Positions 21,645 through 49,608 of a stretch of DNA of 57,230 nt are shown piece by piece; the first letter of the stretch is position 1, and the number at the start of each line of letters is the position of its first letter. Location: NCBI GenBank assembly GCA_030634545.1, contig DAOWAN010000002.1, positions 1 to 57,230 on the forward strand. Reading direction: 5' to 3'. This stretch comes from Candidatus Nanohalarchaeota archaeon. Lineage in GTDB: Archaea > EX4484-52 > B79-G9. The translations under genes were made by a program, and so were the position numbers. The notes under the pieces are model-generated. The model was not told where the DNA came from, ran no database searches, and saw nothing but the letters and a program-made list of their open reading frames with translations.

Positions 21645-21646
21645 TT

Positions 21647-24920: not shown

Positions 24921-26912
24921 TTATTTTTTCTTTTTCTTGAAATTCTTCTTGTATTTTACCAATATCAACAGTAAGAAAAATATGATTGCAACTGCACCCA
25001 CAATTATCATCGTGTTCTTGTTTCTTTCCTTGCTGATTATATCTTCCAATTCCTTTATGAGTCTCTGTTGCTCTTCATTGTTCAGTCTCAGCTTCTCTAC
25101 CAGTTCCGCCTGCTCTTCAGAATTAAGCTCAAGCTCAGATATTATTATTACCTGTTCATCAAGATTAAGTTGCATGTTGATTATAATCTCTGCCTGCTCT
25201 TCTGTTGTCAGTTCCAGATTAGATATAATCTCTGCCTGCTCTCCAGTGCTTAGCTGAAGCTCTGTTATCAGCCTTGCCTGTTCTTCTATGTTCAACTGAA
25301 GCTCTGTTATCAGCCTTGCCTGTTCTTCTGTTGACAGTTCCATCGCCAATATGATTAATGCCTGCTCTTCAACCTTCCCAGTTATCTCCTGTATGAATAT
25401 GACATCTTCTGCAATGGTGTTCTGCAATGCAGATATGATTTCACCCTGTTCTGCAAAGCTCAGTTCCATCTCTGCAATCAATCTTGCCTGCTCTTCTGTC
25501 TGAATCTCTAACAGACCTATAAGTATAGCCTTTTCCAGAAGATTTATGTTCAGGTTATCTATTATTATTGCCTGTTCCTGCACATTCAGGCTCAACTGCT
25601 GTATCATGATTGCCTGTTCCTGTACTGAAAGCTCTAATTGGGCAATGATGATAGCTTTTTCATCCACTGTCAACTGAAGCTGGTCAATTATATCCGTCTG
25701 TTCCAATATTGTCCTGTCAAGCTCTGCTATCAAAAGACCTTTCTCTTCAATAGTCATCTCAAATTGTGAAATAAGCTCTGTCATCTGGTTGACTGTAATT
25801 TCAAGCTGGTTAATCAATAAGGCTTTTTCCTCTATTGTCAATTTCAGCCTGTCTATAATCTCTGCCTGTTCCTGTATCGTCAAATCAAGATGTGATATTA
25901 ACCTTGCCTGCTCATCAAGAGTAAGCTGTAATTCTTCAAGCAACCTTATCTTGTCTTCCCTTAAATCTATCAGATTATCAATCAATATCAGAATCTCGTC
26001 AATCTCTAAATTAGCAGAATTTATGATGTCAATTAGATTAGACCTGCACTCGGAAAAAGTTGAATATCCATAAGCAAGACATATATCAGGAACTTGTTTT
26101 TGAACACATACACATTGGTCTTGGTCAACAACATAATCACCAGAGCATGTCAAAGGACAGATTTTAGTTATGCTCTCCACACAATGCGGTTGGGCTGGGT
26201 CATTCCAATCAGTGCCTTTGCAGAAATTCTGTTGCCAGATGCCGTCATAGACCTGACCACGAACCCAGAGACAGTCGCTTCCATCATAATATTTGTTATT
26301 ACTGCCGTAAGGTATATCTAAAAATAAATTATCATATTGTATGTTCAATATCTTTGTTGTGAACGGTCTGTCTCCACTCCAGCCTTCAATCTCTTCAATC
26401 TTACTCCATCTTTGCATAATATTATTGTTTTGGTCAAGCAGTTCAACATACCAAGAGCATCCATTTTCAGAATCATAATCAATGCCACCATAATCTCCAA
26501 GATAATATCTATCATACCAAGTACAATGGCTGTTGCAATAAAGAGTTTTATCACATACATCACCATACGCACAACTACTTCTATCACAATCCCTGTAACC
26601 AGCAACATAAACATCGTAAATAGGGCAGACACCTGAAATTCCAATATCTTCAATATACACACTGCATGCACCAAAATTATCAGAACTAAATTCTTTGCAT
26701 CCTTGGAAACTGTAATAATTTTCACCTGTATGAACCCTGAATTTCCATGTCTCACCTGATTGATGCGTCACAAGAATATCAAGCGGTATTCCAATCCCGA
26801 TTAAAGCTGTCTGCCTGCTTGGACTTATGAATACAGTAATTGCCAAAAGAAATAAAATAACCACTACTATTATCGTACCCCGTACTTTACTCTTTGTTTT
26901 CTTCTTTACCAT
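24921..26912 (-). CDS. membrane-anchored spike or tether candidate: Cys-rich head, about 320-aa 14-residue-repeat coiled coil, C-terminal TM (663 aa)
   Basis: MVKKKTKSKVRG plus a TM. A Cys-rich domain at aa 35-290 is paralogous to 30417-31478. About 23 repeats of LxLT.EEQA.II.. span aa 300-622. TM (MIIVGAVAIIFFLLLILV) and a KKNFKKKKK tail. Confidence 0.85.
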   Translation of the reverse strand: MVKKKTKSKVRGTIIVVVILFLLAITVFISPSRQTALIGIGIPLDILVTHQSGETWKFRVHTGENYYSFQGCKEFSSDNFGACSVYIEDIGISGVCPIYDVYVAGYRDCDRSSCAYGDVCDKTLYCNSHCTWYDRYYLGDYGGIDYDSENGCSWYVELLDQNNNIMQRWSKIEEIEGWSGDRPFTTKILNIQYDNLFLDIPYGSNNKYYDGSDCLWVRGQVYDGIWQQNFCKGTDWNDPAQPHCVESITKICPLTCSGDYVVDQDQCVCVQKQVPDICLAYGYSTFSECRSNLIDIINSANLEIDEILILIDNLIDLREDKIRLLEELQLTLDEQARLISHLDLTIQEQAEIIDRLKLTIEEKALLINQLEITVNQMTELISQFEMTIEEKGLLIAELDRTILEQTDIIDQLQLTVDEKAIIIAQLELSVQEQAIMIQQLSLNVQEQAIIIDNLNINLLEKAILIGLLEIQTEEQARLIAEMELSFAEQGEIISALQNTIAEDVIFIQEITGKVEEQALIILAMELSTEEQARLITELQLNIEEQARLITELQLSTGEQAEIISNLELTTEEQAEIIINMQLNLDEQVIIISELELNSEEQAELVEKLRLNNEEQQRLIKELEDIISKERNKNTMIIVGAVAIIFFLLLILVKYKKNFKKKKK
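25047..26015. repeat. about 23 tandem 42-bp (14-codon) coding repeats
   Basis: In-frame periodicity of 42 bp. Adjacent units can be near-identical: gctctgttatcagccttgcctgttcttct occurs at 25259 and again at 25301. Confidence 0.85.
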
Positions 26913-30416: not shown

Positions 30417-31478
30417 TCACCTTTTCTTCTTTGTTTTCCTGTTCCTGTTGAACAAGATGCTGAATGTGATAAGCATTAATATAAATAATATTATTATGAT
30501 GATGGTGTTCGTCAGTTTAAATTCAAAAGGCTCTTCTGGTTCTTGTTCTGGTGGCTCTTCCTCTGGTGGCTCTTCCTCAAGTGTGCATTCGTCATTCACA
30601 CAGAAAAAGCCTTCTGAACAGTCTGAATCTGAAATACATTCTGGCTGTGGTTCAACACAAGTGCATGAGTCATAATCAAGCTCTTTGTCTTCTGGACATC
30701 CTAATTTACATAATAAAGTCACTGGCTCTATACAGTCTGGCTCATCAAGACCGTCATTACCAAGACAGACATTATATCTGTATCTGTCATCTTCAACCTG
30801 AAATTTCACACTTATACATGATTTTATACTAGAGCCGTCTGCACGTCTCTGGACAATTCCGTAATGGTCAGATATAGTTTTTATAGAAGTCCCTTCATAC
30901 TTGAAATCAATGGCTTCCCTGTAATATTTGTCTTTTTCCCAGTCTTCACCATATTTATCCTGTGCAGATAATTCCTTTATCAGGTTGCCTTCCTTGTCTT
31001 TAACTAAAATATACCATGCACAATTATCATAACTGTCATAGATTGCACCGCCGTATGTACCTAAATCATAGCCGTCAATCCAACTGCAATGACTTTCACA
31101 ATAATCTCCTCTGCTTGTTGAAGTTCTTTCATCACAATTCTCACCGTACATGCAGTTGCTTCTGCTTGCGATACTGTCACAGTCACGCCAGCCTTCACCA
31201 TAGCATTGTTCAATAGTGCAGTCAAATTCATAGTCAATCACTTCACCCCAGACACGGCACGCACTTTTTCCAGAACATCCAGTCGGCTTGCAACCAGTCT
31301 TCTTCCAATACTTGTCAAAAGCATTGAATGTTATCTTCAAATCTTCTGTCTCAAGAACGAAGTCAGTTCCCATGCCGATTAGTGCAGTCTGACGTACAAA
31401 AAATATTGCCATAAGAAAAATTATCAGAATGGTTGAAACTATCAAAATCTTTGTCTTTCTCTTAATTTTATCTGCCAT
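30417..31478 (-). CDS. membrane-anchored Cys-rich ectodomain protein, paralog of the head of 24921-26912 (353 aa)
   Basis: MADKIKRKTK plus a TM, then VRQTALIGMG. Shared blocks with 24921-26912: GWRDCD/GYRDCD, CMYGENCDE/CAYGDVCDK, SHCSWIDGYDLGTYGGAIYDSYDNCAWYILV/SHCTWYDRYYLGDYGGIDYDSENGCSWYVEL. Acidic EEPPEEEPPEQEPEEP linker, then a C-terminal TM and NRNRKTKKKR. Confidence 0.85.
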   Translation of the reverse strand: MADKIKRKTKILIVSTILIIFLMAIFFVRQTALIGMGTDFVLETEDLKITFNAFDKYWKKTGCKPTGCSGKSACRVWGEVIDYEFDCTIEQCYGEGWRDCDSIASRSNCMYGENCDERTSTSRGDYCESHCSWIDGYDLGTYGGAIYDSYDNCAWYILVKDKEGNLIKELSAQDKYGEDWEKDKYYREAIDFKYEGTSIKTISDHYGIVQRRADGSSIKSCISVKFQVEDDRYRYNVCLGNDGLDEPDCIEPVTLLCKLGCPEDKELDYDSCTCVEPQPECISDSDCSEGFFCVNDECTLEEEPPEEEPPEQEPEEPFEFKLTNTIIIIILFILMLITFSILFNRNRKTKKKR

Positions 31479-31502
31479 CTTCAAAAAAAAGATTCTCTGC
31501 CT

Positions 31503-33832: not shown

Positions 33833-35347
33833 TTACTTCAACCCCAGAAAGTTTAGTTTGCTCATTAAATTCTTTATTGCGAACAGGACAACACCTACTG
33901 CGATGATTATTAAGATGCCCTGCCATGTGAATATGAAGTCTATGAAAGTCTTGAATAAGAAGTAAACAAGACCGCCTGCTGACAATGAGCCGATTACGAA
34001 CATGACTATATTGACATTATCCTTCTTTTTCTTCTTTGCTTCATACGTGTTGTAAAGGTAGCCGAAAACTCCTAATGATGTCAATACGCTTAGAATTATC
34101 GATACAATCAATATGTTCTCTTTAAGCATTTCCAAAAAGCCTTTTTTTGTCTGGCAGTCTGGGTCTTCCATATCTATCTTCCCGTCAGCATCATTGTCAA
34201 CACCGTCATCACATATCTCATCTGTGCTTTCATAACATCTTGTGTTCCTTGCATCGCAACCATACTGGCATTCCTTAATCAGATAAATTCCATTTACACA
34301 ATCCCATAAGTCTGAACCTACACATACATTTTTTGTGCAGTCTTCAGTGACCTCTTCTGCCTTGAACGAATAAGAACAAGTATCTTTTTCATCAGAGATT
34401 ATGTCTCTTGCTGTGATTGTGCATGAGAATGATTTTGTACCGCTTGTTGAAATTGCACTCACTGTTGCCTTGACTGTCCTGCTCTCTCCACCCAATAAGT
34501 CAACACCGTAAGTGCTTAATTGTGATGATGCACCTGTACCGCAGTCAACACCTAGATTGAAGCTTGCCCTTTCAGTCTGGCTCGTCCCAATGTTCGTTAT
34601 AACAAAAGATTGCGTCTCTGTATCGCCTGATTCAACCGTGAATCCGCCAAGATTACTGCAATCCAAGTCTGGCTCTCCTGTGACCTGCCTTATGCCGACC
34701 CAGTCAGCGTCAATCTCAATCGTGAACAATCCTGTTGTCATCGGTGTCTCCAATTCAACTTCCAACAGATTACCTGTATCAACATTTATCCTTCTTATAA
34801 TTGGGTTTTGTGAAAGGAATTCTGCTTTCTTGTTCTGGATGATATTGCTTGTTTCTGAATTATATCTCTGGACTTTGGCAAGAGCCTTGTCATAATCCCA
34901 AATCGCAAAATAACACCAGTCATCATTCGGGTCTGAACATTCATCACCGATAAAATTCTCCCTTACAGGTTTATAATCACCGTATGCACCATCATCAACA
35001 AATTGCCAGTTCTGTGTGTTTACAAAAAACATTGCGTCATAATTTGGTGTTGACAGCCATTGGTTTCTCAGCAAATCTCCTTCCCATCTTACAAAGACTT
35101 TGTCATTTCTTCCAGTTGTGGTATCTTGCGTCAATGTTATTGGGTCTAGTCCGTCAACAGAGAATTCTATCTCGAAATCCCTGTCTCTTGTCTCGCCGAA
35201 TCTTGCATCCTGACCTATTGAATATGTTTGGATACAATAGCATTCCGCACCGAAAAGACCGCCTTTCCTGAAAGCATGACCGCCTATCGTACCGCTTGGA
35301 CATACACCGATGCAAGTTCCTAATGCAGTGTTAGTTGTCTTGACCAT
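33833..35347 (-). CDS. Cys-rich ectodomain protein with three C-terminal TM helices (504 aa as called). It lacks its own signal peptide and is probably the distal part of a longer product (see 35462-35464).
   Basis: CDDGVDNDADGKIDMEDPDC matches the widespread CxDGxDNDxDGxxD Cys-rich repeat. The 38 codons upstream are open and coding-like, in frame with 35462-35740 across a single TAA. Confidence 0.8.
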   Translation of the reverse strand: MVKTTNTALGTCIGVCPSGTIGGHAFRKGGLFGAECYCIQTYSIGQDARFGETRDRDFEIEFSVDGLDPITLTQDTTTGRNDKVFVRWEGDLLRNQWLSTPNYDAMFFVNTQNWQFVDDGAYGDYKPVRENFIGDECSDPNDDWCYFAIWDYDKALAKVQRYNSETSNIIQNKKAEFLSQNPIIRRINVDTGNLLEVELETPMTTGLFTIEIDADWVGIRQVTGEPDLDCSNLGGFTVESGDTETQSFVITNIGTSQTERASFNLGVDCGTGASSQLSTYGVDLLGGESRTVKATVSAISTSGTKSFSCTITARDIISDEKDTCSYSFKAEEVTEDCTKNVCVGSDLWDCVNGIYLIKECQYGCDARNTRCYESTDEICDDGVDNDADGKIDMEDPDCQTKKGFLEMLKENILIVSIILSVLTSLGVFGYLYNTYEAKKKKKDNVNIVMFVIGSLSAGGLVYFLFKTFIDFIFTWQGILIIIAVGVVLFAIKNLMSKLNFLGLK

Positions 35348-35461
35348 CTGTGCTATTGAATAAATCTTAGAAGTGTCTTTGAAAACAGGAAATTGCTCGC
35401 TTTGTGATATTTTTGTAAAAGAACCAGAAACAGAATTTGTAACTTCCCAATCACCGCCCTC

Positions 35462-35464
35462 TTA
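35462..35464 (-). other. single in-frame TAA separating a leader-bearing ORF (35465-35740) from its apparent continuation (33833-35461)
   Basis: 35740, 35464 and 35347 are all in the same reading frame. The 114 nt at 35348-35461 have no stop, no ATG/GTG/TTG and no SD, and 29 of 38 third positions are A/T. Confidence 0.8.
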
Positions 35465-35740
35465 TTGTTCAAGTTTTTTTTCGATGTCATCTTTATTCCA
35501 ACTTATTGCGAGACATTCACCGCTTCCTGTACCTGCTCTTGCAAGAACTCTTATCTTGCTTCCGCCATCAATCAAAGATACTGTATCAATAGATAGAACT
35601 GAAGTCGAGCCACAAGCTATTGTAGTCTCCCTGACAAAGAAAATGCCACTAACAATCAGTATGAAAAGAATTATAATAACAGGCACAATCACCTTTTTTT
35701 TAGCAGGTTTTTTAGACCTTCTTTTTGGTTTTTTTGCCAT
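35462..35740 (-). CDS. polybasic-leader/TM protein (92 aa as called)
   Basis: MAKKPKRRSKKPAKKK plus a TM (VIVPVIIILFILIVSGIFF), then VRETTIACG, the same layout as the N-termini of 24921-26912 and 30417-31478. It has its own TATA promoter. Confidence 0.75.
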   Translation of the reverse strand: MAKKPKRRSKKPAKKKVIVPVIIILFILIVSGIFFVRETTIACGSTSVLSIDTVSLIDGGSKIRVLARAGTGSGECLAISWNKDDIEKKLEQ

Positions 35741-35748
35741 TGATAGTG

Positions 35749-35782
35749 TTTTAAATTTGTTTTTGAGTATTTATATTTTTCT
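35749..35782 (-). promoter_or_regulatory. TATA promoter plus 5' region, identical 34-mer to 48627-48660
   Basis: ttttaaatttgtttttgagtatttatatttttct begins 8 nt from the ATG in both places. The coding strand reads AGAAAAATATAAATACTCAAAAACAAATTTAAAA. Confidence 0.65.
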
Positions 35783-35790
35783 ATTAAAAA

Positions 35791-35898
35791 TTAGTAATTA
35801 GAATTAAGCTTGTTTTTACAATCTTCACATGTGTCAGAGCCAACTTCAATCTCTTTCAGCTTTCCGCACTTTGAACATTTTTCAACTTCGACATCCAT
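35791..35898 (-). CDS. Zn-ribbon mini-protein (35 aa; not in the ORF track)
   Basis: Hand-translated as MDVEVEKCSKCGKLKEIEVGSDTCEDCKNKLNSNY. It has its own TATA box 22 nt upstream. Confidence 0.45.
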   Translation of the reverse strand: MDVEVEKCSKCGKLKEIEVGSDTCEDCKNKLNSNY

Positions 35899-35937: not shown

Positions 35938-36323
35938 CAGAATAATGGGTTATAGCCGAAGAATGCCTGTATCATGTACCATATCTTTTTCAAGAAAGAA
36001 ATTTCTTTGATTGTGACAGGATGTATCTTTTTAATATCGTTGACCGTTACATTGATGAAATACATATTCTCTTTCTCATTTGTCGGGACTATCACTTCGT
36101 ATGAATAGATGTTTTCCTTTATCTTTCTCGGAATCTTCCTTGATAAGATTGTCTGGTTGTTCATATCTATTATTTCAAAAGAAACATTGTTAGAAGGTTC
36201 TGACAACACTATCTCAAAACTGTATATCTTTCCTGCCAGCCATGTCTTTTCAGCCACTATATCAAAGTCTAGTGCATTAACTGTTGAAATTAATAATAAG
36301 AACAAAACTATCTTTTTAATCAT
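35937..36323 (-). CDS. secreted or membrane protein (128 aa)
   Basis: Signal peptide MIKKIVLFLLLISTVNA. N-x-S/T sites. Hydrophobic C-terminus. Confidence 0.7.
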   Translation of the reverse strand: MIKKIVLFLLLISTVNALDFDIVAEKTWLAGKIYSFEIVLSEPSNNVSFEIIDMNNQTILSRKIPRKIKENIYSYEVIVPTNEKENMYFINVTVNDIKKIHPVTIKEISFLKKIWYMIQAFFGYNPLF

Positions 36324-37290
36324 CTGATTTCTTTTTAAAGAATCTCTTTCTTATATATGTTCTTTTTTTGATTATGATTACCAATATAAGTAAAATTAAG
36401 ATTATCAGGAACACCAGAACATAATAGATGACTGGCTTTAATCTGCCATCTTCATCCCTTAAACTATCAAAGAAATCTTTAAAAAATGCAACAATGAATA
36501 AGTCTCCTGAAGGCGTTATCAATATGTTATAAAAATCTGTGCTGTCTGTTATCTTCACAGGCTTTGTCTGGTTTATCAAGATACTGCCTTTCCTTGCTGA
36601 AAACATGAAATCATAATTGCCTTTTTCCAGATTGTTGACATAATCCAACGGATAGATGCCTGTTGAACTTTCTTCTAATGTTAAAAAATCAACTGAAGTG
36701 TCCTTTCTCATTACCTCAAGAAAGACCAAATCCATATTTACCAAAGTATTATAGTAGTATGTCTTTACAGTCATTTCAATCGGCTCAGATAAATTATAAG
36801 CGTACCTCGTGGTCTCAATTATGAAATAATATCCCAGAATTTCCTCGCTGACTATCTCATCTGGCTCTTCAACATCTTCTGGCGGTTCATCATAATAAGT
36901 CTCGTTGATACACCAGCCAGAATTGTATTCCTCACCACCACATTCACATAACCTGACTATCTGACCTTCATCACAATCTGTTATTGTGTATGGACTACTC
37001 CCACCGCCACCAGTCGGGGGTGTGCATGCCTGACCTGTCGCTGGCATACTATCAGTTGTGCCACAGACATTAACATCAGTGCAAGTCCTGTTCTGGATAT
37101 TGCCAACACAAGTTGTCCATGAACTGCATGACCAAGATTCCGTACAGCTTGCTTCAAATATAATCATTGGCAGATATGTATCTCCGCCACCGACTATCGC
37201 TTGAAAACCCTGTACGGAACTAATCAATAATATAGAATAAAGTATTGAAAAGACAATTACAAATCCAATAAAAATTCTTTTCTTCATCAT
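36316..37290 (-). CDS. membrane-anchored protein with TSP1-like Cys/Trp motif (324 aa)
   Basis: Start MMKKRIFIGFVIVFSILYSILLISS (TGATG overlap with the upstream stop). CTESWSCSSWTTCVGNIQNRTCTDVNVCGT motif. C-terminal TM and a KKRTYIRKRFFKKK tail. Confidence 0.8.
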   Translation of the reverse strand: MMKKRIFIGFVIVFSILYSILLISSVQGFQAIVGGGDTYLPMIIFEASCTESWSCSSWTTCVGNIQNRTCTDVNVCGTTDSMPATGQACTPPTGGGGSSPYTITDCDEGQIVRLCECGGEEYNSGWCINETYYDEPPEDVEEPDEIVSEEILGYYFIIETTRYAYNLSEPIEMTVKTYYYNTLVNMDLVFLEVMRKDTSVDFLTLEESSTGIYPLDYVNNLEKGNYDFMFSARKGSILINQTKPVKITDSTDFYNILITPSGDLFIVAFFKDFFDSLRDEDGRLKPVIYYVLVFLIILILLILVIIIKKRTYIRKRFFKKKSDD

Positions 37291-39668
37291 CAACAAATGT
37301 ATAATGTTGCAGTTGCACCCGTTCCTATTAAACAACCAGATGAATTTGAACTCCACCCTACTGATGTATTCTGCTCAAATTTCACGTTTTCAACAGTTAT
37401 GTTCTTGCTGAATACAACATTTTCGTCAAATGTCTCAACACTTCCTGTTAATGCGTAAGTATCATCATCTGTTAAAATACTACAAGTCAATGTGTCTGAA
37501 ACTTCATTATCTGCCCACGGATTAGCAGTATTAACTAAGTTTTCATTAATAGTTCCGTCTGCAATGTCTGTTAATGTTGATTCTAATGGTTGAAAACTAT
37601 CATCAAGACTACAAGTATTTCCATCACAAGTAAAGTCACCAAAATCAGATGAAGCCAAATCATCAGGTTCAATCTCACCCATTGTTATTTGTTGTGTTGA
37701 TAATGTTAAATAATCTTGACCTGTCAAAGTCACTAATGCTTGGTGAGAATCATCATCTCCTGCATGTGTTGAAATAGCAGAATCAATTTCAGTTGTTGCA
37801 TCAGTGCAACTTTCAACTGCACCACTTGTATCAACACCAAGAGGATATTCCCCTGCACCACAATTTCCACCATTTGCAACTAATGATGTTGCTGTTGCTG
37901 AATTGTTTGCATTCAGATTTAAATAGCTATAAGTTTTATTTAATGAAAACACATCAGAGCTTTCTGAAATAAAAGTATTATCAGAATCATAAGTTGTGTC
38001 AGTATCTTCTAATATGGTGTCATTAACTTTTATTTGAGTGACATTAATATCTCTCATATTTAAATCCCCTATGAAATCTCTAGTTCCATATATATCCATA
38101 GCCCACGGATGGTTTGTTTGATTGTTTCTTCCTGTTGTCGCATCATGTTCTCCACCAAAATTAACCCCCACAGATTGCAATATCGCAGTATAATCTAGAT
38201 AATAATTATGTGAAGTAATTCCGCTATCATCATGTATAATTCTCATCTGAACAGTCCCACTGTTAATTGTTGTATTTATAAAAAGTTCTGGATTAAATAC
38301 TGAAGCAGATGTTGTACCAAAATCCGTTTGGTCAGTAATAATACCAAAATCTATCCATGAATTAGTAGTTATTTGATATAATTCGATGTGAACTGTATGA
38401 CCAGCACCGCCGTCATATCTTCCTCGCAAGCCGAATGTATTGAATGTAGACACGCCAGTAAAATTTATTCTTATTTCAAAACCAGGCGTACCAGAAACTT
38501 CACTAATATTTAATGTATCACCATCATTAAAATCTAATATTGAAGTTAAGTTCCCAGAATCTAAAGTGCCAGTTAAAACTTGTACTGAAGTTGCATTAAT
38601 AGTTGTTTGAACACCGCCTGATATTGCAAGAATAGTATCATTTAATTCAGTTTCATCAACACTGAAATCTTCTGCTACTAATGTTAGATATTTACTGCTT
38701 TCTGTATAAATTGTATCTGTCAAAGTGCAGAGATTACTACTTGAACCATTAAGCCTGGCACAACTCACATTTCCAGGTATTAAGTATGTGTTAAAGCTTG
38801 AATTAGTGTATGTTGTATCTGTAACTGTCTCTGTTCCAGTAACAATGCTTGTTAAATGACCAAAACCATCTAATAAGATGTCTTGGATATATGTTCTTCC
38901 AGAATTATCAGAACTTGCCTGAGCCGATGTGTCAGAATGGTTTACCTGTGTTCCAACCAAGCTTATTCCTGACCCATTAGTAGTTACTGTATCACTATCA
39001 ACAACCTCTGAATTGATTGTTACGTTGTTTCCTGAGATTGATGTGTTGATGTCATTACCGCCTATAACTCTAAAAATCTCATTGTCTAAAATATCACCAG
39101 AACCACTATCAGAACTAATATTCAAACCAAAACTGCTTGTCAAATCTGTGTAAGTACAGTTTAATGTGCTTGCTGTATTGTCCCAAGTGCATATCTTTGC
39201 GTCTGTCTTTGCACCTGTAAAATCATTAATTGTATCAAACCAGTACTCGTTCAGGACACCGCTTGCATTCATATAATTTGATTTGTTTACGTTAAGGTCA
39301 GCTTCTACCTTGCCACCTAATGTAAGAGAATCATTTGAACCAAAACTTTGTGCCACATACAATAATTTTTTCCTATCAAGTGTTGTTCCATTGATGATTA
39401 TGTGCATCCATAATGGAACGCTGAAATCAACACCAGTCAGGTTTTCCACAACTATCGGTGCGATGTTATTCGTGACATTCACACCAGTTATCAAGTCATG
39501 GTTGAATACAAATGTACCACCGCTTTCAGCAGTCACTAGACTGAAATTAACAACATAGATGCCGTCTGCTTTCGGCACTTGTGTCAACAAGATACCAACA
39601 TCATCATCTAGTGCTAAAACTAAACTTATTGTAATCAAAAACATAGTCACATAGATTATTTTTTTCAT
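37290..39668 (-). CDS. large secreted fibre or adhesin-like protein (792 aa), N-x-S/T-rich
   Basis: Signal peptide MKKIIYVTMFLITISLVLA. Thr/Ser/Asn-rich and beta-rich sequence. ANGGNCGAGEYPLGVDTSGAVESC motif. Dozens of sequons. Confidence 0.85.
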   Translation of the reverse strand: MKKIIYVTMFLITISLVLALDDDVGILLTQVPKADGIYVVNFSLVTAESGGTFVFNHDLITGVNVTNNIAPIVVENLTGVDFSVPLWMHIIINGTTLDRKKLLYVAQSFGSNDSLTLGGKVEADLNVNKSNYMNASGVLNEYWFDTINDFTGAKTDAKICTWDNTASTLNCTYTDLTSSFGLNISSDSGSGDILDNEIFRVIGGNDINTSISGNNVTINSEVVDSDTVTTNGSGISLVGTQVNHSDTSAQASSDNSGRTYIQDILLDGFGHLTSIVTGTETVTDTTYTNSSFNTYLIPGNVSCARLNGSSSNLCTLTDTIYTESSKYLTLVAEDFSVDETELNDTILAISGGVQTTINATSVQVLTGTLDSGNLTSILDFNDGDTLNISEVSGTPGFEIRINFTGVSTFNTFGLRGRYDGGAGHTVHIELYQITTNSWIDFGIITDQTDFGTTSASVFNPELFINTTINSGTVQMRIIHDDSGITSHNYYLDYTAILQSVGVNFGGEHDATTGRNNQTNHPWAMDIYGTRDFIGDLNMRDINVTQIKVNDTILEDTDTTYDSDNTFISESSDVFSLNKTYSYLNLNANNSATATSLVANGGNCGAGEYPLGVDTSGAVESCTDATTEIDSAISTHAGDDDSHQALVTLTGQDYLTLSTQQITMGEIEPDDLASSDFGDFTCDGNTCSLDDSFQPLESTLTDIADGTINENLVNTANPWADNEVSDTLTCSILTDDDTYALTGSVETFDENVVFSKNITVENVKFEQNTSVGWSSNSSGCLIGTGATATLYIC

Positions 39669-39669
39669 C

Positions 39670-42600
39670 TTATACACCACCACAAAATTGAGCATTAACT
39701 ATTACATTGCAACGGTTTGTTGCATCATTACCCGTTATTGTGACATCACCGCAATTAGTTACGGCACTTGATATAATAATAGTATGAGGATTTGAGTCTG
39801 TATGTGAAATTATTACATCGTTACCACCAACATCTGTTGCTGAATCAACAGTGCAATCTTCACTGCAATCTATAACAAAATTGCCACTTGAATAATCACA
39901 TGAATCACCTACACCATAATCAATTACTGTTGCTGTGCTTATAGTATAATAATCTGAACATGTATTACTACCATCTATATCTATTGCACAACATCTCATA
40001 GATTCATAAGTTTCATCTGGCTCTGATGTGATGTTCCAAGTATATGTGTTTCCTTCAGTATGATTGCCAACATCTGTATATATTGTGTTGTACGAAATCT
40101 CTAAACTAGAATAATCATAAACTCCAATAACATCAAAATCTCCGCCCTGTGTATCACCAGTTACATTATATCTTATTTTTATCAGTTTAGATTCATCAAC
40201 ATAATCTGGTGGTGAACCCAATAATTTGTAAAATGAATACTTTTGATAATCTGCACCTGCACCTGCACCTGAAAAACCACCAGGCGTTATATTATATCCA
40301 TCCCCTATACAGCCATGAGTTCCGCCATCACAAGCCAACACTTCCCATCCATCTGTATCCCAATTATAAACATAAGCATAGAACTGCGGTGAAGTGCCTG
40401 GATTAAATTCAGCATCATCACTACCATCACAATCAAGTCCTGTCACTCCACCAGCCCAACAACCACCACCTGATAAATTTAAACTTAATATACTAGATAA
40501 ATCAAGTGTACTAACATTAAAAACCCACTCTATTTTTGTCTTTGCAACAGCACTATCATTAAATCCAGCTTGCCAACTATTTGTATTTGTGCATGTACCT
40601 TGACCACAATCTTCAGTGTTGGTTTTTGAAACTGCATATCCCCCATCTGTTTTGTCACCAGTTGTAACAAAAGATGCGGTATAAGAGACATAATTTCCTA
40701 AAACTTGGTCACTTTCATTGCCTTTCTGGAGTACATAAGTGATAGTATTACTCTCTACATCAGTACTTCCAGTACAATTTAAACATATAGGAGACTCTGT
40801 AAAAGTATCATTTAAATCTCCCTCTGTGCCATTACATAATTGCAAACTTGTCGGTGTTGTTGGCACTGCATTAGTAATGCTAAAATTATAAATCCCTGAT
40901 GTTGTTATATTTTTAGTATCAGTCACATTGACATACCAATTATGGTCAACACTATCCATCAGACCAGCCCAATTACATCTGACTGTTGTTCCTGGTGAGA
41001 TACTTGCATTAGTACAGATAACAACATCATTGCTTGAATTTACAAAAGAGACTTCCACTGTGTCTCCCCCGTCATCATCATTAGCAGTTACATTTAAGTC
41101 AACCAAAGTTATACCTGCTGTTAATAAAGTATTGTTGGCTGGCACTAAATTAGCAAGTGTTGGTAGATTGTTCGGCAGTGGTGTATTCTGTAAAGTATAA
41201 GTGCATATAGTATTAGAGAAATTAGACTCAGAGATGTCATAAGTATCATTGTAAGCTGTAATATTGTAACAGTGTTCTGTGTTGTTGATTAAATTAGTAT
41301 TATTATAATAATTATTAGTTGTATTTACGAAATTAATTGAGAAATTATGCAGTAAGAATTTTTCTGCTGTATCCTGTGCATCCCATGTTAAATAAATACT
41401 CTCATTGTTCTGGCTGTCATTCAATAAAGTAGTTGGAGTTGGTGTCTGTGTTATGATAAAAGGATATTGCCACCCATCACCATCATTATACAAGTCAGAA
41501 ATTTCAGTCCTGTTCAATTCTCGTGTAAAATAATTAAATTCATCTATCTCTCCTGTAAACCACCATTGAGCATCATTAGGTTTACCGATGTTAAGAGTGT
41601 TCATATTATCTATATCTAGATTTTCTCCACTTTCAGCGTTTAAAACTGTGGTCTGTAAAACATTATCAATATACAAAATCAAATCAGTACATAAAGTTCC
41701 ATTCCTAATCATAGTAAACATGTGCCAATCACCATCATCAGTTGTAGATTCAACCTTTCTTTGACAATATCCTACATCTCCTGTTGTTGTTCTTGTGAAT
41801 ATAAGGATACGGTCTGTTCCCGACTGGTCTGCCCATCTTGATTTAATATGGTCATTTGGCACAGCAGAATTCCATATCTGGAAGAATTGTTCATCACTTG
41901 ACACCTCTTGTGTATTATACCAAAGATTAACAGTGAAGTCACCTTGATTTACATCATACTCTGTTCCGACAGCAGTTCTGCTAAGATGGTCATTACCATC
42001 ATAAGAATAACTTTCGTCAATAATACCACCAACACCTGTTGTCGCCCCTGTAATAGTCATGTTATAACTATTATGTAAGTCTTCACTATTAGCACCAACT
42101 GTTTCTGTATCGTCAAAAGTTAAATATTTAACCAAGCCAGTAGTCATACCTGTGCTTGTCGGGTCGTAATCTTCTTCTGGAAAAGTAATCATATAAAAAT
42201 AATCATTAATCTTTGTGATGTTACGCACATTGACCAGTGTAGTATTATGCTCTATTCCATCTACATCTATGAACAATTCTTCTAATGACACATTAATATA
42301 TTGTGGTGGATATTCAACACAATTATGATAAATAGTTGTTTGTGCTATTCCAATACCAAATATAGATTTATCTTCTTCAATACATAAATAATTACCATCC
42401 TGTATGATTTTTTTATCTGATGTAAGATATTCATATCCAGAGTCCCTATGACCCCATTCTTTGGTCTGAGTTATATCACCGACTTCATATATCGGGACAG
42501 AACTTGTTATTGTGAAGAAACTTGACCCGTCTGGTGTTTCTAATTCAAATTCACTGTCAGATTTGATTTTTAGCTTGAAACCATCATCAGTTTCCAGTTC

Positions 42601-42714
42601 ATATTCTTCATCATCAAACTTGACCCATTCATCAGGCGGTATTTCCTGAGAATAGCTTAAAGTAAGTAAAAGAAGTAATGTAATCATCAATAATAATGAT
42701 GTTTTTTTCCCCAT
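39670..42714 (-). CDS. giant secreted protein with LamG (concanavalin-A-like lectin) domain (1014 aa)
   Basis: Signal peptide MGKKTSLLLMITLLLLLTLSYS. Aa 194-415 match the Laminin_G_3 pattern (LTFDD...DLHNSYNMTITGA...DESYSYDGNDHL...DFTVNLW...GDWHMFTMIRNGT...LYIDN...LNIGK...FTGEIDEFNYFTRELNRTEISDLY). Confidence 0.85.
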   Translation of the reverse strand: MGKKTSLLLMITLLLLLTLSYSQEIPPDEWVKFDDEEYELETDDGFKLKIKSDSEFELETPDGSSFFTITSSVPIYEVGDITQTKEWGHRDSGYEYLTSDKKIIQDGNYLCIEEDKSIFGIGIAQTTIYHNCVEYPPQYINVSLEELFIDVDGIEHNTTLVNVRNITKINDYFYMITFPEEDYDPTSTGMTTGLVKYLTFDDTETVGANSEDLHNSYNMTITGATTGVGGIIDESYSYDGNDHLSRTAVGTEYDVNQGDFTVNLWYNTQEVSSDEQFFQIWNSAVPNDHIKSRWADQSGTDRILIFTRTTTGDVGYCQRKVESTTDDGDWHMFTMIRNGTLCTDLILYIDNVLQTTVLNAESGENLDIDNMNTLNIGKPNDAQWWFTGEIDEFNYFTRELNRTEISDLYNDGDGWQYPFIITQTPTPTTLLNDSQNNESIYLTWDAQDTAEKFLLHNFSINFVNTTNNYYNNTNLINNTEHCYNITAYNDTYDISESNFSNTICTYTLQNTPLPNNLPTLANLVPANNTLLTAGITLVDLNVTANDDDGGDTVEVSFVNSSNDVVICTNASISPGTTVRCNWAGLMDSVDHNWYVNVTDTKNITTSGIYNFSITNAVPTTPTSLQLCNGTEGDLNDTFTESPICLNCTGSTDVESNTITYVLQKGNESDQVLGNYVSYTASFVTTGDKTDGGYAVSKTNTEDCGQGTCTNTNSWQAGFNDSAVAKTKIEWVFNVSTLDLSSILSLNLSGGGCWAGGVTGLDCDGSDDAEFNPGTSPQFYAYVYNWDTDGWEVLACDGGTHGCIGDGYNITPGGFSGAGAGADYQKYSFYKLLGSPPDYVDESKLIKIRYNVTGDTQGGDFDVIGVYDYSSLEISYNTIYTDVGNHTEGNTYTWNITSEPDETYESMRCCAIDIDGSNTCSDYYTISTATVIDYGVGDSCDYSSGNFVIDCSEDCTVDSATDVGGNDVIISHTDSNPHTIIISSAVTNCGDVTITGNDATNRCNVIVNAQFCGGV

Positions 42715-42739
42715 CCTTAATCAGTTGAATTTGTTTTGT

Positions 42740-42756
42740 GACTTATATATTTTTCT
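42740..42756 (-). promoter_or_regulatory. internal TATA-box promoter overlapping the stop codon of 42743-46942
   Basis: The coding strand reads AGAAAAATATATAAGTC, ending 25 nt from the ATG at 42714. Confidence 0.5.
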
Positions 42757-45700
42757 TTCTCTTTCTTTTTGGTTTGACAACCTTAATTATTATCAAAGTC
42801 CAGCCTATCAAAAAGATTAAAACAATGTATGTCCAAAATAATAATATATTGTAAAATAAAGAGATTATCGTGAAGACGAACATTATAATTTGTGATATTA
42901 AGTGTGTTGAGAACTTTGCTTTCTTGAATAATAATATCACCCAGAATAACATCAGTGCGTGAGTAAGCCATAAAACAGGATTGAATGCGTTCACCAACTC
43001 TATCTCATTGATGTCTTCTTTAATATATTGTTTCATATAATCATAAATAAGAACACCTATTGAATTGTCTTTGAACTTATCTAATATTTCACCAAACAAT
43101 AAAGAAGGGTCTGTGACATACTTCGTGATTGGATGGGTGTCTTTTGCACCTTTTAATGATGCTGGGCTTGTTACCTCACCAATGATGTTGACAACATATC
43201 TCTCCCCGATGATTATGTCTATCGGTGTCTCGATGTCCATGCAGAACGTCTCCCTTGTCTCTGATGACGGCAGGACTGTCATATATAATAAATTGTCAGT
43301 TTTTTCACAGTTCACTTCATTCTGGCATTTGAAAGTGTACCATAAACAGGCATTTCTCAGTGTTGCTTCAGGGTCTTCACATGTTATCTTGATTACCTGC
43401 GTGACTGTTGCAGTATTGATTATGTCAAGACAGTATTCCCTTGTTGAAGATGGTCTTATCCCAAGTTGTGCTGTCTCTTCGCTGAATGCGTTTACCGTGA
43501 CGATGTTGAACTTGACTTGTGGTTGTTCATCTCCGCCACCCCCACCACCAGACGGCGGTGCTGGTGCTGAGATTATATTCATGTCAAAAGAAGATGAATT
43601 TGTGATTGAGTTTCCTGAAGTGTCTGCACAAATCCATTCTGTAAAAGTGTAGTTACCTGTCTTGGTCGGTGTGAATAAGATTATCTGTGTGTTTCCTGAG
43701 CTTGATGATGCTGTGTACGTTGTCTTTACTGTGTCTGGGTCTGTGACATTCACTTTTAGATAATTTATTGAGCTTCCTGCATCGTAGCAGTCTGCCGTGA
43801 CATTGACCTGTACTTGCACTGTGCCTGAACTTGATACTGAATAGTTCTGCATAATCGGTGCTGTCGAGTCTCCAATAGTCAGTTCGCTTGAATTGTACCA
43901 AGAAGACCATTCTTCACTATCATTTACCCTGATAGAACAGAGCCATTTTTCACTACCAGATGTGTTGCCTGAACCTAAAATTTGATTGGTCATCCCATAC
44001 AAGATAGAATCATTGTACCATCTGAATTCCTGGCTAGATTCTGTGTCCAAATCAATATCTGAAAAAATATAACTACAATTCAAGTCATCAGAATTATCTG
44101 CTGGGCTTGGAGAAATAACTATTGAAGATATTGTTGGTATTGAATTTAATATAGTTATGTTTGAGATTTCATTTATGCTGTTCCTATATGCGTCATAAAC
44201 AGTTATACTACAATTCACTTCATCTGTTTTGTTAGTTAAGTTTGTAAAATTTGGACTTTTAATATTAGTGTTATTTGTGATTGATGTCTCTGTCCCATTT
44301 AGAACCAAACTATTGTTTATATACCAGTCCACGTCAGCATACAAACCCAATAATATATTATCTGTGATGGTGTAATTACAATACATTGTCTGGTTTTTGT
44401 AAGAAGACAAAGGATAAATAATAGGGCTTGTCTTAAAGACAGGTGATGTTGTATCTGTTACATTACTTAAAGGCAAGTAATCAATATTATTAGATTGTAA
44501 TGTGTGATTAATATCACATATACCATCTGTGTTAGAATCTGTGCAATTTTCACTAAAACCTGCACCTGTATATGTCGCCCAGTAATTACCACCTATCAAT
44601 CCTTTTATTTTATTTAATATTCTAGTTCCTGCTTGCTTTGTTGTGTTCCAGTATCTAAAAAATCCTGAATTACAATCAAAAGAAACACCATTAGACGTTC
44701 CTGTATGGTTTATTATACTGTTATAAATTGTTGAGTAGCCATTACATGTATACAAAGCAACTGTTGAACTAGACTGGAATATTGAATTAAAAAGTGTTAT
44801 TGTTGAATAATCATTATAAAAAGCATTACTGGTAGAATTATACACAGATAAATTTTCAACAGTACTATCATCACAATCTAAACAAAATAAACCATAATAT
44901 GTCTGTATTAAATCTACATTTGTTATATTAATTTCACTGCCGATTACAAAGATGCCGTTGTTATCATATCCTGTCTGGTCAATAGTAACATTACTAATAT
45001 GTACTGTTCCGCCCTCACAAGTTATTATTTCACTGACATTATTGGTGTCAGAAATAGAAGAACCTGCACTTAACACTGATATTGGCTTATTTCCAGTTCC
45101 AATAATATTTGTTGAAGAAGAAAAAGCACCACAATGCACATCTGAAGATGTTGGTGTTATATACACATCTACTTTTCCACTATTCAATATAATCACGTCT
45201 GTTAATTTTCCAGAAGCATCATTAGACTGATAATATCCATAAGATGAACTGTTAGTTATATTAACATTTTCTACATGAACATTATGGTAGTCAATAGTCC
45301 CATAAACATGAATACCGTTACCTGATAAATCAATCGTAGAATTTTCTATATATACATCTAGTTCACCAGCAGATTGTCCAACAACATAAATACCGTCATC
45401 TGGTGATGAAGTGATATGAATATTATGTATTTTATGGTCAACATCTGGTATTTTAATTGCTGAAGTATCCCAGTCTGATAAATAACAATTTTTAATGTAA
45501 ATCCCATCCCAGCTAGTAGTAATGATTCCATAATCAGCAGTATCATCTCCATCAATAGTGTTGCCCTGACAATCAAGAGTTACATTATTTCCTGTTATAT
45601 ACATGCAGTTTGAAGTTGTAGAGTTAGCGATAGATTGATTTAAAAAATAATGACTATTATCTTCACTTAATTCTGTGCAATCAGAAATTGTGATATTATT

Positions 45701-46942
45701 CAAATCTATATAAGTTATGTTTAAAAAAGGTCTTGTAGATACACCTAGACATCCAGCAGGGTCTCCAGATGTAGATTCTTTTGAACAAGCATCAAACTTA
45801 TCGTTTTGTCCCTGTAATGTTGCATTCCAAAGAAAACTTACATTATCATAACTATCATCATATTGATTATCAACCCAAGAAGTAACATTAAAAAACAACC
45901 AAAAATCATCAGCATCATAAGGGATTGTCGTATTTTCATCTATCTGATTACCGTGTTCTGGAAAATGGTCATAAGTTATTCCACTACTAATAGTTCCGTT
46001 ACCTTCCCACCACGTCTGATTGCTTACTTCATAAACATAAGTTTCTATTGTATCACCGTTATCATAATCGTTTGATTTTATAAAAATACCTAACATAGCA
46101 TCATTTACAGATGAAAAGTCAGGTATACTTGATATATTGAATTTAATAAAACTAAAAATTGATAAAACACTAACATCAGTTCCAGCCGATAACCTAGTAG
46201 CATCACCATAATTTGTATCAGCAATTATATTATATTGCACATAAGCGTCTTCTAAATTCTCTGTGTCTGCATCCTGCAAAGTTATTGTGGTTGAATTACC
46301 ACCAAACTTGAATTGCCTGCCTAAAGGACTGCTTGTGTATTGGAACTTATAATCATTAGCAACTATAATCCCGTCTTTCATCTCCCATTTATAATCATAT
46401 TTAATCTCGTACTTTATGCCGTCAACTTCCCATTTGTCAGAAATCTTGAACTGGCACTTGGCTTCAATATCGCTTTTTACAGTGCATTCCTCTGGATAAT
46501 CACTTGGATTCCCTGTGAAGTTTGTATGTATCAAGATGCCAGAGTTGTTGAAGTCAATGACATCCATATCAAAATCTGGGTCTGTCTCAAGATATTTGAC
46601 TTTATAATAATCTTTCAGGCTTTTCACAGAATCTTCAATATTTTTCCAGACACCATCTTCATAAACATATCTTGTTCCAGAATAGAGTGTTTTAGTGCAT
46701 TCTTCTTCAAAAAAAATGCTATCTCTACAATAATTATCCCTTAAATCAAGACAATAAACAGTTCCATTTTCATAAGTGTCGTAATCAACACAATAATCTG
46801 CATAACAGATTTCTTTTATTTTTTCTATTGGCGTACAAACAGTTTTTGTTGTCGGCGTGTAAGTTGTATCCTGTGCAGTAACTATACTTAATAGTAATAT
46901 ACAGAAGAGTAAATATATTAACCTTTTTGATAGATTTCCCAT
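42743..46942 (-). CDS. giant surface protein with right-handed parallel beta-helix (PbH1/NosD-like) region and C-terminal multi-TM anchor (1399 aa)
   Basis: Signal peptide MGNLSKRLIYLLFCILLLSIVTAQ. EDAYV...NYGD...FIKFNISSIP...YEVSNQTWWEG is a DNRLRE-like pattern. NVTLDCQGNTIDG...YGI...IKNC...GIYV...GNGIHV repeats and GGNYW...CTDSNTDGICD are beta-helix signatures. GGGGGG linker. 3-4 TM helices and a KPKRKRKK tail. Confidence 0.85.
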   Translation of the reverse strand: MGNLSKRLIYLLFCILLLSIVTAQDTTYTPTTKTVCTPIEKIKEICYADYCVDYDTYENGTVYCLDLRDNYCRDSIFFEEECTKTLYSGTRYVYEDGVWKNIEDSVKSLKDYYKVKYLETDPDFDMDVIDFNNSGILIHTNFTGNPSDYPEECTVKSDIEAKCQFKISDKWEVDGIKYEIKYDYKWEMKDGIIVANDYKFQYTSSPLGRQFKFGGNSTTITLQDADTENLEDAYVQYNIIADTNYGDATRLSAGTDVSVLSIFSFIKFNISSIPDFSSVNDAMLGIFIKSNDYDNGDTIETYVYEVSNQTWWEGNGTISSGITYDHFPEHGNQIDENTTIPYDADDFWLFFNVTSWVDNQYDDSYDNVSFLWNATLQGQNDKFDACSKESTSGDPAGCLGVSTRPFLNITYIDLNNITISDCTELSEDNSHYFLNQSIANSTTSNCMYITGNNVTLDCQGNTIDGDDTADYGIITTSWDGIYIKNCYLSDWDTSAIKIPDVDHKIHNIHITSSPDDGIYVVGQSAGELDVYIENSTIDLSGNGIHVYGTIDYHNVHVENVNITNSSSYGYYQSNDASGKLTDVIILNSGKVDVYITPTSSDVHCGAFSSSTNIIGTGNKPISVLSAGSSISDTNNVSEIITCEGGTVHISNVTIDQTGYDNNGIFVIGSEINITNVDLIQTYYGLFCLDCDDSTVENLSVYNSTSNAFYNDYSTITLFNSIFQSSSTVALYTCNGYSTIYNSIINHTGTSNGVSFDCNSGFFRYWNTTKQAGTRILNKIKGLIGGNYWATYTGAGFSENCTDSNTDGICDINHTLQSNNIDYLPLSNVTDTTSPVFKTSPIIYPLSSYKNQTMYCNYTITDNILLGLYADVDWYINNSLVLNGTETSITNNTNIKSPNFTNLTNKTDEVNCSITVYDAYRNSINEISNITILNSIPTISSIVISPSPADNSDDLNCSYIFSDIDLDTESSQEFRWYNDSILYGMTNQILGSGNTSGSEKWLCSIRVNDSEEWSSWYNSSELTIGDSTAPIMQNYSVSSSGTVQVQVNVTADCYDAGSSINYLKVNVTDPDTVKTTYTASSSSGNTQIILFTPTKTGNYTFTEWICADTSGNSITNSSSFDMNIISAPAPPSGGGGGGDEQPQVKFNIVTVNAFSEETAQLGIRPSSTREYCLDIINTATVTQVIKITCEDPEATLRNACLWYTFKCQNEVNCEKTDNLLYMTVLPSSETRETFCMDIETPIDIIIGERYVVNIIGEVTSPASLKGAKDTHPITKYVTDPSLLFGEILDKFKDNSIGVLIYDYMKQYIKEDINEIELVNAFNPVLWLTHALMLFWVILLFKKAKFSTHLISQIIMFVFTIISLFYNILLFWTYIVLIFLIGWTLIIIKVVKPKRKRKKNI

Positions 46943-47451
46943 TTTAGTTTTGTGTCATACTGCTTGTACCTGAAGAATGCAAACTGGTTCTGACCGCATT
47001 GCACACCCATGATGATGTCCTTGTCATAATCTTTATTGTCAACCCATGATTCAAGTGCTTCTATATCCTGCTCTGATAAAACACATATACCGTCTTTGTG
47101 GTTGTGCATATCTATCAACACATTACCTTTGCATGCGTACCTTAATGCGTATGATTCATCCGCTTCAGTCACAAAAGCATCGTCAAGAGAATAGATATAT
47201 ATCTTTCCTTCACGTTCACCGCCGTAAAGACAGATTGCATATTCTGAGTCAAAAATATAATAGAGCCAGTTCAACTGGTCAACAACTTCAGGCTTGAAAT
47301 AAATCTCTGTATCACTTGTCTCTGCTTGGATTTCTTTTGGAACAAAACCAGAGATGATTGGGACTCTGTAATTATAAATGCTTACTGCTGTTATCAGACC
47401 CATTAAAAATGATATTATTATTAATAGAATTATCAGTAATGTGTTATTCAA
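46918..47451 (-). CDS. membrane-anchored JAMM/MPN+ (JAB) metalloprotease candidate (177 aa as called)
   Basis: EYAICLYGG plus HNHKDGICVLSEQD equals E...HxH-x7-S-xx-D, the JAMM motif (nt 47065-47106). N-terminal TM. The track start is a TTG with no SD, and the ORF is in frame with the upstream ORF across one TGA. Confidence 0.65.
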   Translation of the reverse strand: MNNTLLIILLIIISFLMGLITAVSIYNYRVPIISGFVPKEIQAETSDTEIYFKPEVVDQLNWLYYIFDSEYAICLYGGEREGKIYIYSLDDAFVTEADESYALRYACKGNVLIDMHNHKDGICVLSEQDIEALESWVDNKDYDKDIIMGVQCGQNQFAFFRYKQYDTKLKWEIYQKG

Positions 47452-47499
47452 TTTGTTGCTTATTATTGATTTCTTTTTTGGTCTTGGAACTATTTTTAA

Positions 47500-47502
47500 T
47501 CA
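47500..47502 (-). other. in-frame TGA between 47503-48618 and the JAMM ORF
   Basis: 48618 and 47451 are in the same frame. The 16 intervening codons (LKIVPRPKKKSIISNK) are open. Confidence 0.6.
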
Positions 47503-48618: not shown

Positions 48619-48626
48619 GATTATTA

Positions 48627-48660: not shown

Positions 48661-48662
48661 TT

Positions 48663-49586: not shown

Positions 49587-49608
49587 TAATGATTATTATT
49601 TCAGAACT

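Follow-up and report, generated by a model that had tools for sequence, protein, structure and literature searches.

The window analyzed here is a 57,230-nucleotide (nt) stretch of DNA assigned to a Candidatus Nanohalarchaeota archaeon (GenBank assembly GCA_030634545.1, contig DAOWAN010000002.1), and the locus of interest lies on its minus strand, where two open reading frames (ORFs) in one shared frame are the parts of a single fsx1-like fusexin gene. The upstream ORF (35462-35740) encodes 92 amino acids (aa) that start with MAKKPKRRSKKPAKKK and continue into a transmembrane (TM) segment at aa 17 to 35, and the downstream ORF (33833-35347) encodes 504 aa with three C-terminal hydrophobic segments by hydropathy scan. 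The sole in-frame stop between the two is the TAA at 35462-35464. The intervening 114 nt (35348-35461) comprise 38 codons, translated as EGGDWEVTNSVSGSFTKISQSEQFPVFKDTSKIYSIAQ, with no in-frame stop and no ATG, GTG, or TTG. A or T occupies the third position in 29 of the 38 linker codons, a fraction of 0.76 compared with 0.75 and 0.60 in the flanking ORFs. The hydropathy scan also gave the 92-aa product a basic N terminus ahead of a strong hydrophobic segment, and the 504-aa ORF no hydrophobic N terminus. An earlier sequence-only reading had reported the shared frame, the open linker, its third-position composition, and the missing hydrophobic N terminus of the larger ORF, and each of these was reproduced.

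How the two ORFs relate was addressed statistically and by homology. Base composition alone would leave 38 codons open with a probability of ~0.04, which is modest evidence beyond chance. Moreover, in a codon-usage scan of the 119 junctions in the window at which at least 35 open codons lie on each side of one stop, the split-gene junction ranked first, with a strong coding signal on both sides, and no second junction of such kind was found. Homology settled the question that the chance and codon-usage statistics had left. When the conceptual fusion of the two ORFs was searched against 5.8 billion proteins, one homologue was found, a 612-aa protein (P0002) with 52% identity over 92% coverage that is encoded by a single uninterrupted ORF on a 15.7-kb Logan contig. 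In a global alignment, threonine (codon ACA) stands opposite the stop in the window, and leucine stands opposite Met132, the residue at which the 504-aa ORF begins. Identity to P0002 is 58% in the linker, 48% in the leader ORF, and 50% in the 504-aa ORF; the linker is more conserved than both of its flanks and therefore is conserved coding sequence. Finally, the cluster of the window ORFs at 90% identity includes a 635-aa protein (P0004) from ENA contig ERZ23498471 scaffold_1527 (24,302 bp), hereafter the sister contig. P0004 is the conceptual fusion in full, linker included, with serine (TCA) at codon 93 and leader residues 1 to 92 that are 100% identical.

More distant relatives are continuous as well. 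An exhaustive HMMER profile search of 1.84 billion cluster representatives matched 671 representatives at an E value of ≤1e-3 and 62 at ≤1e-30. Nearly all of the top matches are 584 to 668 aa long and match end to end in one stretch, and part of the matches are giant proteins that match a short Cys/Asp motif only. All of the full-length representatives that were aligned (42 of 42) are continuous across the region, and thus the relatives are not encoded as two separate genes. The column of the stop holds T, S, or a gap within a short variable loop, and the column of Met132 holds L, S, T, I, or V but never Met; by its column, the supposed start of the 504-aa ORF is an internal residue. The family is clearly under purifying selection. 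Other searches covered the same ground with different queries: a word-indexed search with a 46-sequence alignment gave at least three proteins; a search for genome loci with a smaller alignment gave 49 loci, 48 of which matched a C[ND]DG[VIL]DND motif only; a profile search with a two-sequence alignment gave no relatives among viral, metagenome, or genome contigs; and blastn with the split-gene region gave no match in a phage collection. The proposal that one gene of ~635 codons is split by a single TAA is supported by the intact near-identical contig, the 612-aa homologue, and the 42 continuous relatives, and the two ORFs should be merged in annotation as one disrupted gene.

Perhaps the locus functions as a split gene, in which a 92-aa leader protein and an independently initiated 504-aa protein work together or separately. 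There is indeed an ATG at 35347, and the 504-aa ORF is reported by gene callers. Met132 is unconserved, however, the linker contains no start codon, and neither an SD-like (Shine-Dalgarno) nor a promoter-like sequence was seen when the region upstream of the ATG was inspected. Moreover, the 504-aa product would have no signal peptide and would begin only after the first strands of an extracytoplasmic fold rich in disulfides, and split relatives were found neither in the profile search nor in the alignment. Thus, we consider a functional split gene extremely unlikely.

What the merged gene encodes became apparent from profile and structure comparisons. The earlier guess at an envelope protein was a good one, as the product is a homologue of class II fusogens, and specifically a fusexin, both by profile and by Foldseek. 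Scans of either ORF alone against Pfam and PHROGs gave no match, and a phmmer search of the PDB with the single 635-aa sequence did not reach Fusexin1 (Fsx1; 7P4L), while its Cys motif alone matched teneurin. A profile of 46 sequences matched 7P4L with an E value of 5.2e-31 (profile positions 60 to 504, chain positions 17 to 490), and the next PDB match was HAP2 (5OW3) at 0.02. One member of the family matches the Pfam HAP2-GCS1 family at 6e-9, and another matches Hanta_Gc_C. The relationship to Fsx1 is therefore remote at the level of sequence.

Structure prediction agrees with the profile. An AlphaFold2 (AF2) model was built on the family alignment for P0002, the 52%-identical homologue, and not for the window protein, and reached a mean predicted local distance difference test (pLDDT) score of 82.8. 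The model consists of an N-terminal helix, a β-rich ectodomain, three helices within residues 245 to 302, and three C-terminal TM helices (residues 526 to 551, 559 to 587, and 590 to 608). Foldseek comparison of the model to the PDB returned Fsx1 7P4L first (E = 1e-20), then HAP2 from three species (5e-17 to 2e-12), and then alphavirus E1 and hantavirus/bunyavirus Gc. The PDB alignments had a probability of 1.0 across 450 to 500 columns, with TM-scores of only ~0.3 that may reflect differences in inter-domain conformation. Comparison to BFVD returned only class II glycoproteins of eukaryotic RNA viruses. We conclude that the two ORFs are one fsx1-like fusexin gene, the product of which has a class II ectodomain between a signal anchor and three C-terminal TM segments.

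Individual features of Fsx1 can be followed into the window protein. An invariant disulfide in domain III and a conserved disulfide in domain II have been described for Fsx1 (PMC9259645). The domain II disulfide (C125-C155) aligns with C143 and C167 of the window protein, and the domain III disulfide (C389-C432) aligns with C400 (34541-34543) and C440 (34421-34423), a pair that spans 34421-34543 on the minus strand. All four cysteines sit in near-invariant columns and are predicted to form the counterpart disulfides. The hidden Markov model (HMM) alignment extends through Fsx1 residues 417 to 490, which make up domain IV, with the cysteines aligned, and the P0002 model has β-strands at 462 to 481 in the domain IV region. 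Helices at 245 to 257, 274 to 291, and 296 to 302 of the monomer model of P0002 occupy the place of the domain II helical hairpin of Fsx1, which contributes to a six-helix bundle in the Fsx1 trimer. The sequence RKGGLF (aa 158 to 163) aligns with the cd (fusion) loop, the position of which is given for Fsx1 (PMC9259645), and GGLF is conserved in P0002. RKGGLF may act as the fusion loop, and the HMM alignment to 7P4L makes RKGGLFGAEC (aa 158 to 167; 35240-35269, minus strand), the last residue of which is the conserved domain II Cys167, the candidate segment. Fsx1 is built of a signal segment, domains I to IV, and three C-terminal TM segments (PMC9259645), and by hydropathy scan and model helices the signal segment and the three TM segments of the window protein match that layout. 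Membrane fusion by Fsx1 itself has been measured in a cell-cell fusion assay (PMC9259645).

The gene can be laid out from its 5' end, all on the minus strand. An AT-rich region at 35741-35780, with a TATA-like box ATATAAATA ~25 to 35 nt upstream of the ATG, is a putative promoter for the whole gene. Codons 1 to 92 (35465-35740) cover the basic N terminus and the signal-anchor TM segment and run on into the ectodomain as far as its first β-strands and helix. The hydrophobic segment itself (VIVPVIIILFILIVSGIFF; 35636-35692) is a signal peptide or signal anchor by hydropathy scan, and the equivalent helix lies at residues 5 to 21 of the P0002 model. The premature TAA is codon 93 and is followed by codons 94 to 131, the so-called linker. 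Codons 132 to 635 (33836-35347) encode the rest of the class II ectodomain (domains I to IV), an acidic Cys motif, and three C-terminal TM helices at aa 543 to 561, 578 to 596, and 602 to 620 (33881-34114, hydropathy scan), after which the natural terminator is a TAA at 33833-33835. The acidic motif, CDDGVDNDADGKIDMEDPDC (34154-34213), contains two predicted disulfides, lies between domain IV and TM1, and matches NCBIfam NF033662 with an E value of 2.4e-8, which is below the curated cut-off; it is similar to a Cys-rich motif of teneurin. We note that the pattern C[ND]DG[VIL]DNDxDGxxDxxDxDC occurs once in the fusexin and in 10 to 20 tandem copies in giant proteins of Myxococcota, Rickettsiales metagenome-assembled genomes (MAGs), Candidate Phyla Radiation (CPR) bacteria, and DPANN archaea (loci L011 to L058). 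We also note that a 35-aa ORF adjoining the gene upstream (35791-35898, minus strand) has two CxxC pairs like a zinc-ribbon mini-protein, and that it is identical in the sister contig, where it is called as a gene.

How the gene acquired a stop codon can be approached through the sister contig. That contig matches window positions 36097 to 11896 and is 99.98% identical over ~24 kb, with 4 mismatches in the first 12,265 bp, 5 single-nucleotide polymorphisms (SNPs) across ~24.2 kb, and a gap of 100 Ns at a 99-bp tandem duplication. One of the five SNPs is the stop itself, as a single base at window position 35463, A for C on the coding strand, changes TCA to TAA. The others are synonymous at 29661 and at 26112, Ala/Thr at 26075, and Asp/Tyr at 12618 beside the N-gap; two of the five fall in the repeat region of a 663-aa protein that is described below. 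The sister contig derives from BioSample SAMN18200496 (sample RS_8, Illumina run SRR13892604), taken from Site-F cold seep sediment in the South China Sea (PMC9357000). The window is matched as well by two Logan contigs assembled from that run, a 1,043-bp contig (36795-35753) at 100% identity and a 10,149-bp contig (35448-25300) with 2 mismatches. The 304-nt gap between the two Logan contigs, 35449-35752, spans the leader ORF and the stop site. At positions 29661, 26112, and 26075, the window reads G, T, G, the Logan contig reads T, T, A, and the ENA contig reads T, C, A. Thus, two assemblies of one run differ at 26112, with Logan carrying the window allele, and at least two haplotypes must co-exist in the sample, such that the assemblies are mosaics.

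We think it probable that the TAA is a real, unprogrammed nonsense allele of the fsx1-like gene, drawn from a microdiverse population of the element. A genuine allele is likeliest because of the microdiversity, because two of the SNPs are synonymous, and because the site context is non-repetitive, and from these we infer that the TAA is biological and not an error of consensus. Both suggestions in the sequence-only reading, that the stop is either a recent nonsense mutation or a sequencing error and that it might be a population polymorphism, fit the data. TCA is present in the near-identical contig, and polymorphism within the sample is seen at another site, 26112. Several points weigh against a genuine null allele. 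The TAA is present in one assembly only. The Logan gap contains the stop site, with the break falling 15 nt short of it, and Logan therefore casts no vote; the break would be explained if microdiversity or a related element had made the assembly graph branch locally. Purifying selection disfavors a null allele a priori and raises the prior for a consensus error. Finally, loss of function is itself a prediction from sequence, by which this copy is most likely a null allele that makes no functional fusogen.

The same points make an artefact of assembly or sequencing a possibility, if a doubtful one, in which the true sequence is TCA everywhere and the A is an error of the consensus or of bin reassembly. 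Such an error could come from an oxidative miscall of the G-to-T type or from a minority-read path picked by the assembler. A change of C to A on the coding strand is G to T on the plus strand, and G-to-T changes are a classic class of library damage. TAA is found in only one assembly, TCA is found in an independent assembly from a related sample, and a nonsense change is unexpected in a strongly conserved gene. Moreover, the probable source study put its MAGs through a second assembly once they had been binned (PMC9357000). The other four differences between the assemblies, however, resemble ordinary population SNPs, two being synonymous and one polymorphic within a single run. Moreover, the site lies outside homopolymers and repeats, and the 2e-4 differences per base observed here far exceed the rate of substitution errors in a deep Illumina consensus.

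If the nonsense allele is real, codon 93 would have changed from TCA to TAA by a single C-to-A change on the coding strand, and the window would represent one genotype drawn from a microdiverse population of a ~57-kb integrative element in cold-seep sediment. Translation would end at residue 92, and its product would be a short stub anchored in the membrane. The stop falls ~50 residues into the ectodomain, past the first two strands and a helix, and a stub of 92 aa cannot be a fusogen. The remaining 542 codons would be left without a conserved start, without a signal peptide, and without the first strands of domain I.

A stop might instead be read through by design. Programmed readthrough or local recoding, as the sequence-only reading had proposed, would yield the 92-aa stub and the full-length fusogen as regulated isoforms, and would fit with the clearly coding, in-frame sequence on either side of the stop. 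Also in its favor, a G follows directly on the stop, and this context is other than the commonest one (8 of the 44 TAA terminators in the window precede G). The proposal fails when conservation of the stop is considered, as neither the 99.98% identical sister contig nor the 52% identical homologue nor any of the 42 aligned relatives has it. In addition, TAA terminates more of the 84 window genes (44) than TGA (35) or TAG (5) and also ends this very gene. No tRNA genes were found in the window, and thus no suppressor tRNA is encoded there. No stable RNA structure was found downstream of the stop either, as the fold of 35340-35470 (131 nt) was less stable than its shuffles (z = +1.38), and the window has no further junction of such kind. 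Programmed readthrough and the recoding of stops in phages use UGA or UAG and are not known to use UAA. We consider programmed readthrough at this stop very unlikely. Recoding of TAA throughout the genome was considered separately and ruled out, as there is one such junction only, TAA ends 44 of 84 genes, and no tRNA was found.

Known systems help to place the stop. Readthrough of the phage Qβ coat gene into A1 at UGA, of retroviral gag into pol at UAG, and the reassignment of TAG or TGA in recoded phages all resemble the window in having an in-frame stop between coding segments of one frame. There the stop, either UGA or UAG, is conserved and comes with a leaky context, RNA structure, or a suppressor tRNA, and in recoded genomes the reassigned stop recurs in many genes. 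None of these hallmarks holds at the window stop. The closer likeness is to prophage and element genes inactivated by nonsense mutation and to nonsense variants in metagenomes, in which a single-base nonsense change interrupts an otherwise intact gene, a near-identical intact allele occurs in the same environment, and the element carries an integrase. We conclude that the window stop belongs to the category of nonsense variants, with no essential difference. The stop codon itself is thus ordinary, a point nonsense variant and possibly an error.

The value of the locus lies instead in the identity of the gene, a divergent archaeal fusexin and thus a prokaryotic relative of the gamete fusogen HAP2 and of the class II fusion proteins of viruses. 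Like Fsx1 (7P4L; Moi et al. 2022, PMC9259645), to which it is homologous by profile across domains I to IV and which is its best structural match, the window protein has the conserved domain II and III disulfide cysteines, predicted helices in domain II, the signal segment, and the three TM segments, and like fsx1 the gene is carried on a mobile element. The window protein differs from Fsx1 in being very divergent (~15% identity in structural alignment), in an additional acidic double-disulfide motif ahead of TM1, in its origin from a cold-seep element of low GC content (35%) and not from a haloarchaeon, and in the premature stop of the copy at hand. HAP2/GCS1 and the viral class II proteins share the three-domain class II fold (Foldseek E values of 5e-17 to 1e-8), but sequence identity is only 8 to 14%, and those proteins have a single TM segment and no domain IV where the window protein has three TM segments. 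The known viral class II fusogens are all from eukaryotic RNA viruses.

The window gene also belongs to a large family. At an E value of ≤1e-10, the profile search gave 218 clusters at 50% identity, some of which match the Cys motif only; a count of 96 metagenomic fusexin sequences was given in 2022 (Moi et al., PMC9259645). The family is Fsx1-like, mostly 600 to 660 aa in length, and unannotated, as it is not recognized directly by Pfam or PHROGs. Intact and null alleles in near-identical genomes would offer a natural contrast for population or expression studies.

What kind of element carries the gene is suggested by its other genes. The window is 35% GC, has nearly all of its genes on one strand, and has few genes with recognizable homologues. 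Pfam, PHROGs, and NCBIfam scans of nearly all of the larger ORFs (~370 aa and above) recognized a serine recombinase/integrase (674-1468, plus strand; Pfam Resolvase at 1.5e-7 and Recombinase, phrog_95 at 2.5e-22) and a topoisomerase-like protein (20562-21698; phrog_6247 at 7e-73). Further recognized genes encode an FkbM methyltransferase, a GHKL-type ATPase-like protein, YopX and DUF5667 proteins, and giant surface proteins with CBM96 and LamG domains, and 19 of 34 larger genes encode TM-like segments. XerC/XerD, HerA, VirB4, and TraG/VirD4, which mark the haloarchaeal integrated mobile elements (IMEs) that carry fsx1 (PMC9259645), were not recognized in those scans, and neither were capsid, portal, or terminase. 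The window thus differs from the Fsx1 elements, and we note that its serine recombinase differs in type from the XerC/D tyrosine recombinases reported for them. The only candidate of the element for a packaging or transfer nucleoside triphosphatase is a 538-aa protein (55198-56814, plus strand) that has a long C-terminal helix and, at residue 47, the Walker A motif ALSGQGKT. It has only two homologues among the 5.8 billion proteins and no match in Pfam, PHROGs, NCBIfam, or the PDB, and its AF2 model, built from 3 sequences only, has a pLDDT of 48. A Logan contig (L059) is colinear across the junction from the end of the window to its start, with the ATPase, a small gene, the resolvase, and the leftward genes in order. 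The last 66 nt of the window (57165-57230) repeat the first 66 nt of the ORF at 198-620 with one mismatch, and the sequences upstream of the two copies differ. The colinearity and the terminal repeat argue that the window is probably a nearly complete circular element of ~57 kb.

The surroundings of the gene vary between relatives. The fusexin is the only window gene shared, at an E value of ≤1e-5, with the contigs of P0002 and of another family member, P0006. Synteny links those two contigs, and in both a Zn-dependent phospholipase C is encoded two genes downstream of the fusexin; a lipid-degrading enzyme beside a fusogen is suggestive. No counterpart of the phospholipase C was detectable in the window. 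Fusexin contigs L001 (7397-8488) and L004 (12447-13544) encode, a few genes downstream of the fusexin, a ~650-aa protein and a Zn-dependent phospholipase C, and the two phospholipases are 57% identical. The GTDB species representatives yielded a single full-length relative, on a contig of a Candidatus Woesearchaeota MAG, a hint that the host is of the DPANN type. For elements of this kind, Moi et al. warn against relying on bin assignments (PMC9259645).

Perhaps the element is not a conjugative IME at all but a virus-like agent, enveloped or carried in vesicles, that infects a DPANN-type archaeon and uses its fusexin for entry. We raise the idea because of the apparent circularity, the serine recombinase, the membrane or surface nature of the majority of the larger genes, and the absence of recognized conjugation genes, and we regard it as speculative and rather unlikely. 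If it were true, however, a class II fusogen would have been found on a prokaryotic virus-like genome for the first time, and the TAA/TCA pair would be a natural polymorphism between null and intact entry proteins that segregates in one sediment population. Moi et al. found no evidence for fusexins in archaeal viruses and pointed out that an archaeal virus with a fusexin would bear on a "virus-first" scenario (PMC9259645). Given that fusexins are not known from any archaeal virus, and that conjugation-type genes were not recognized in the window, elements of this type are worth examining.

Other proteins of the window have a similar membrane-bound or surface character. The sequence-only reading had compared the split gene with two proteins encoded at 24921-26912 (663 aa) and 30417-31484 (355 aa), and in each of these a single ORF indeed encodes a basic N terminus and TM leader, followed by a Cys-rich ectodomain and a C-terminal anchor. 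Both are on the minus strand and are paralogues over their N-terminal Cys-rich ~280 aa (36% identity, E = 3e-41), and the 663-aa protein has in addition, ahead of its C-terminal anchor, a ~350-aa helical region made up of repeats of 14 residues (42 nt). The fusexin was also tested for homology to the 663-aa protein, said to share its leader type, and homology was rejected. A run of membrane or surface genes on the minus strand (36316-52943) encodes proteins of 1,399 aa (with CBM96 and many N-x-S/T sequons), 1,014 aa (with LamG), 801 aa, 469 aa, and 346 aa, together with multi-pass proteins of 372 and 269 aa. Finally, the 99-bp tandem duplication (12590-12795) is present in 2.1 copies that are 98% identical, and it duplicates the start of a small Cys-rich ORF.

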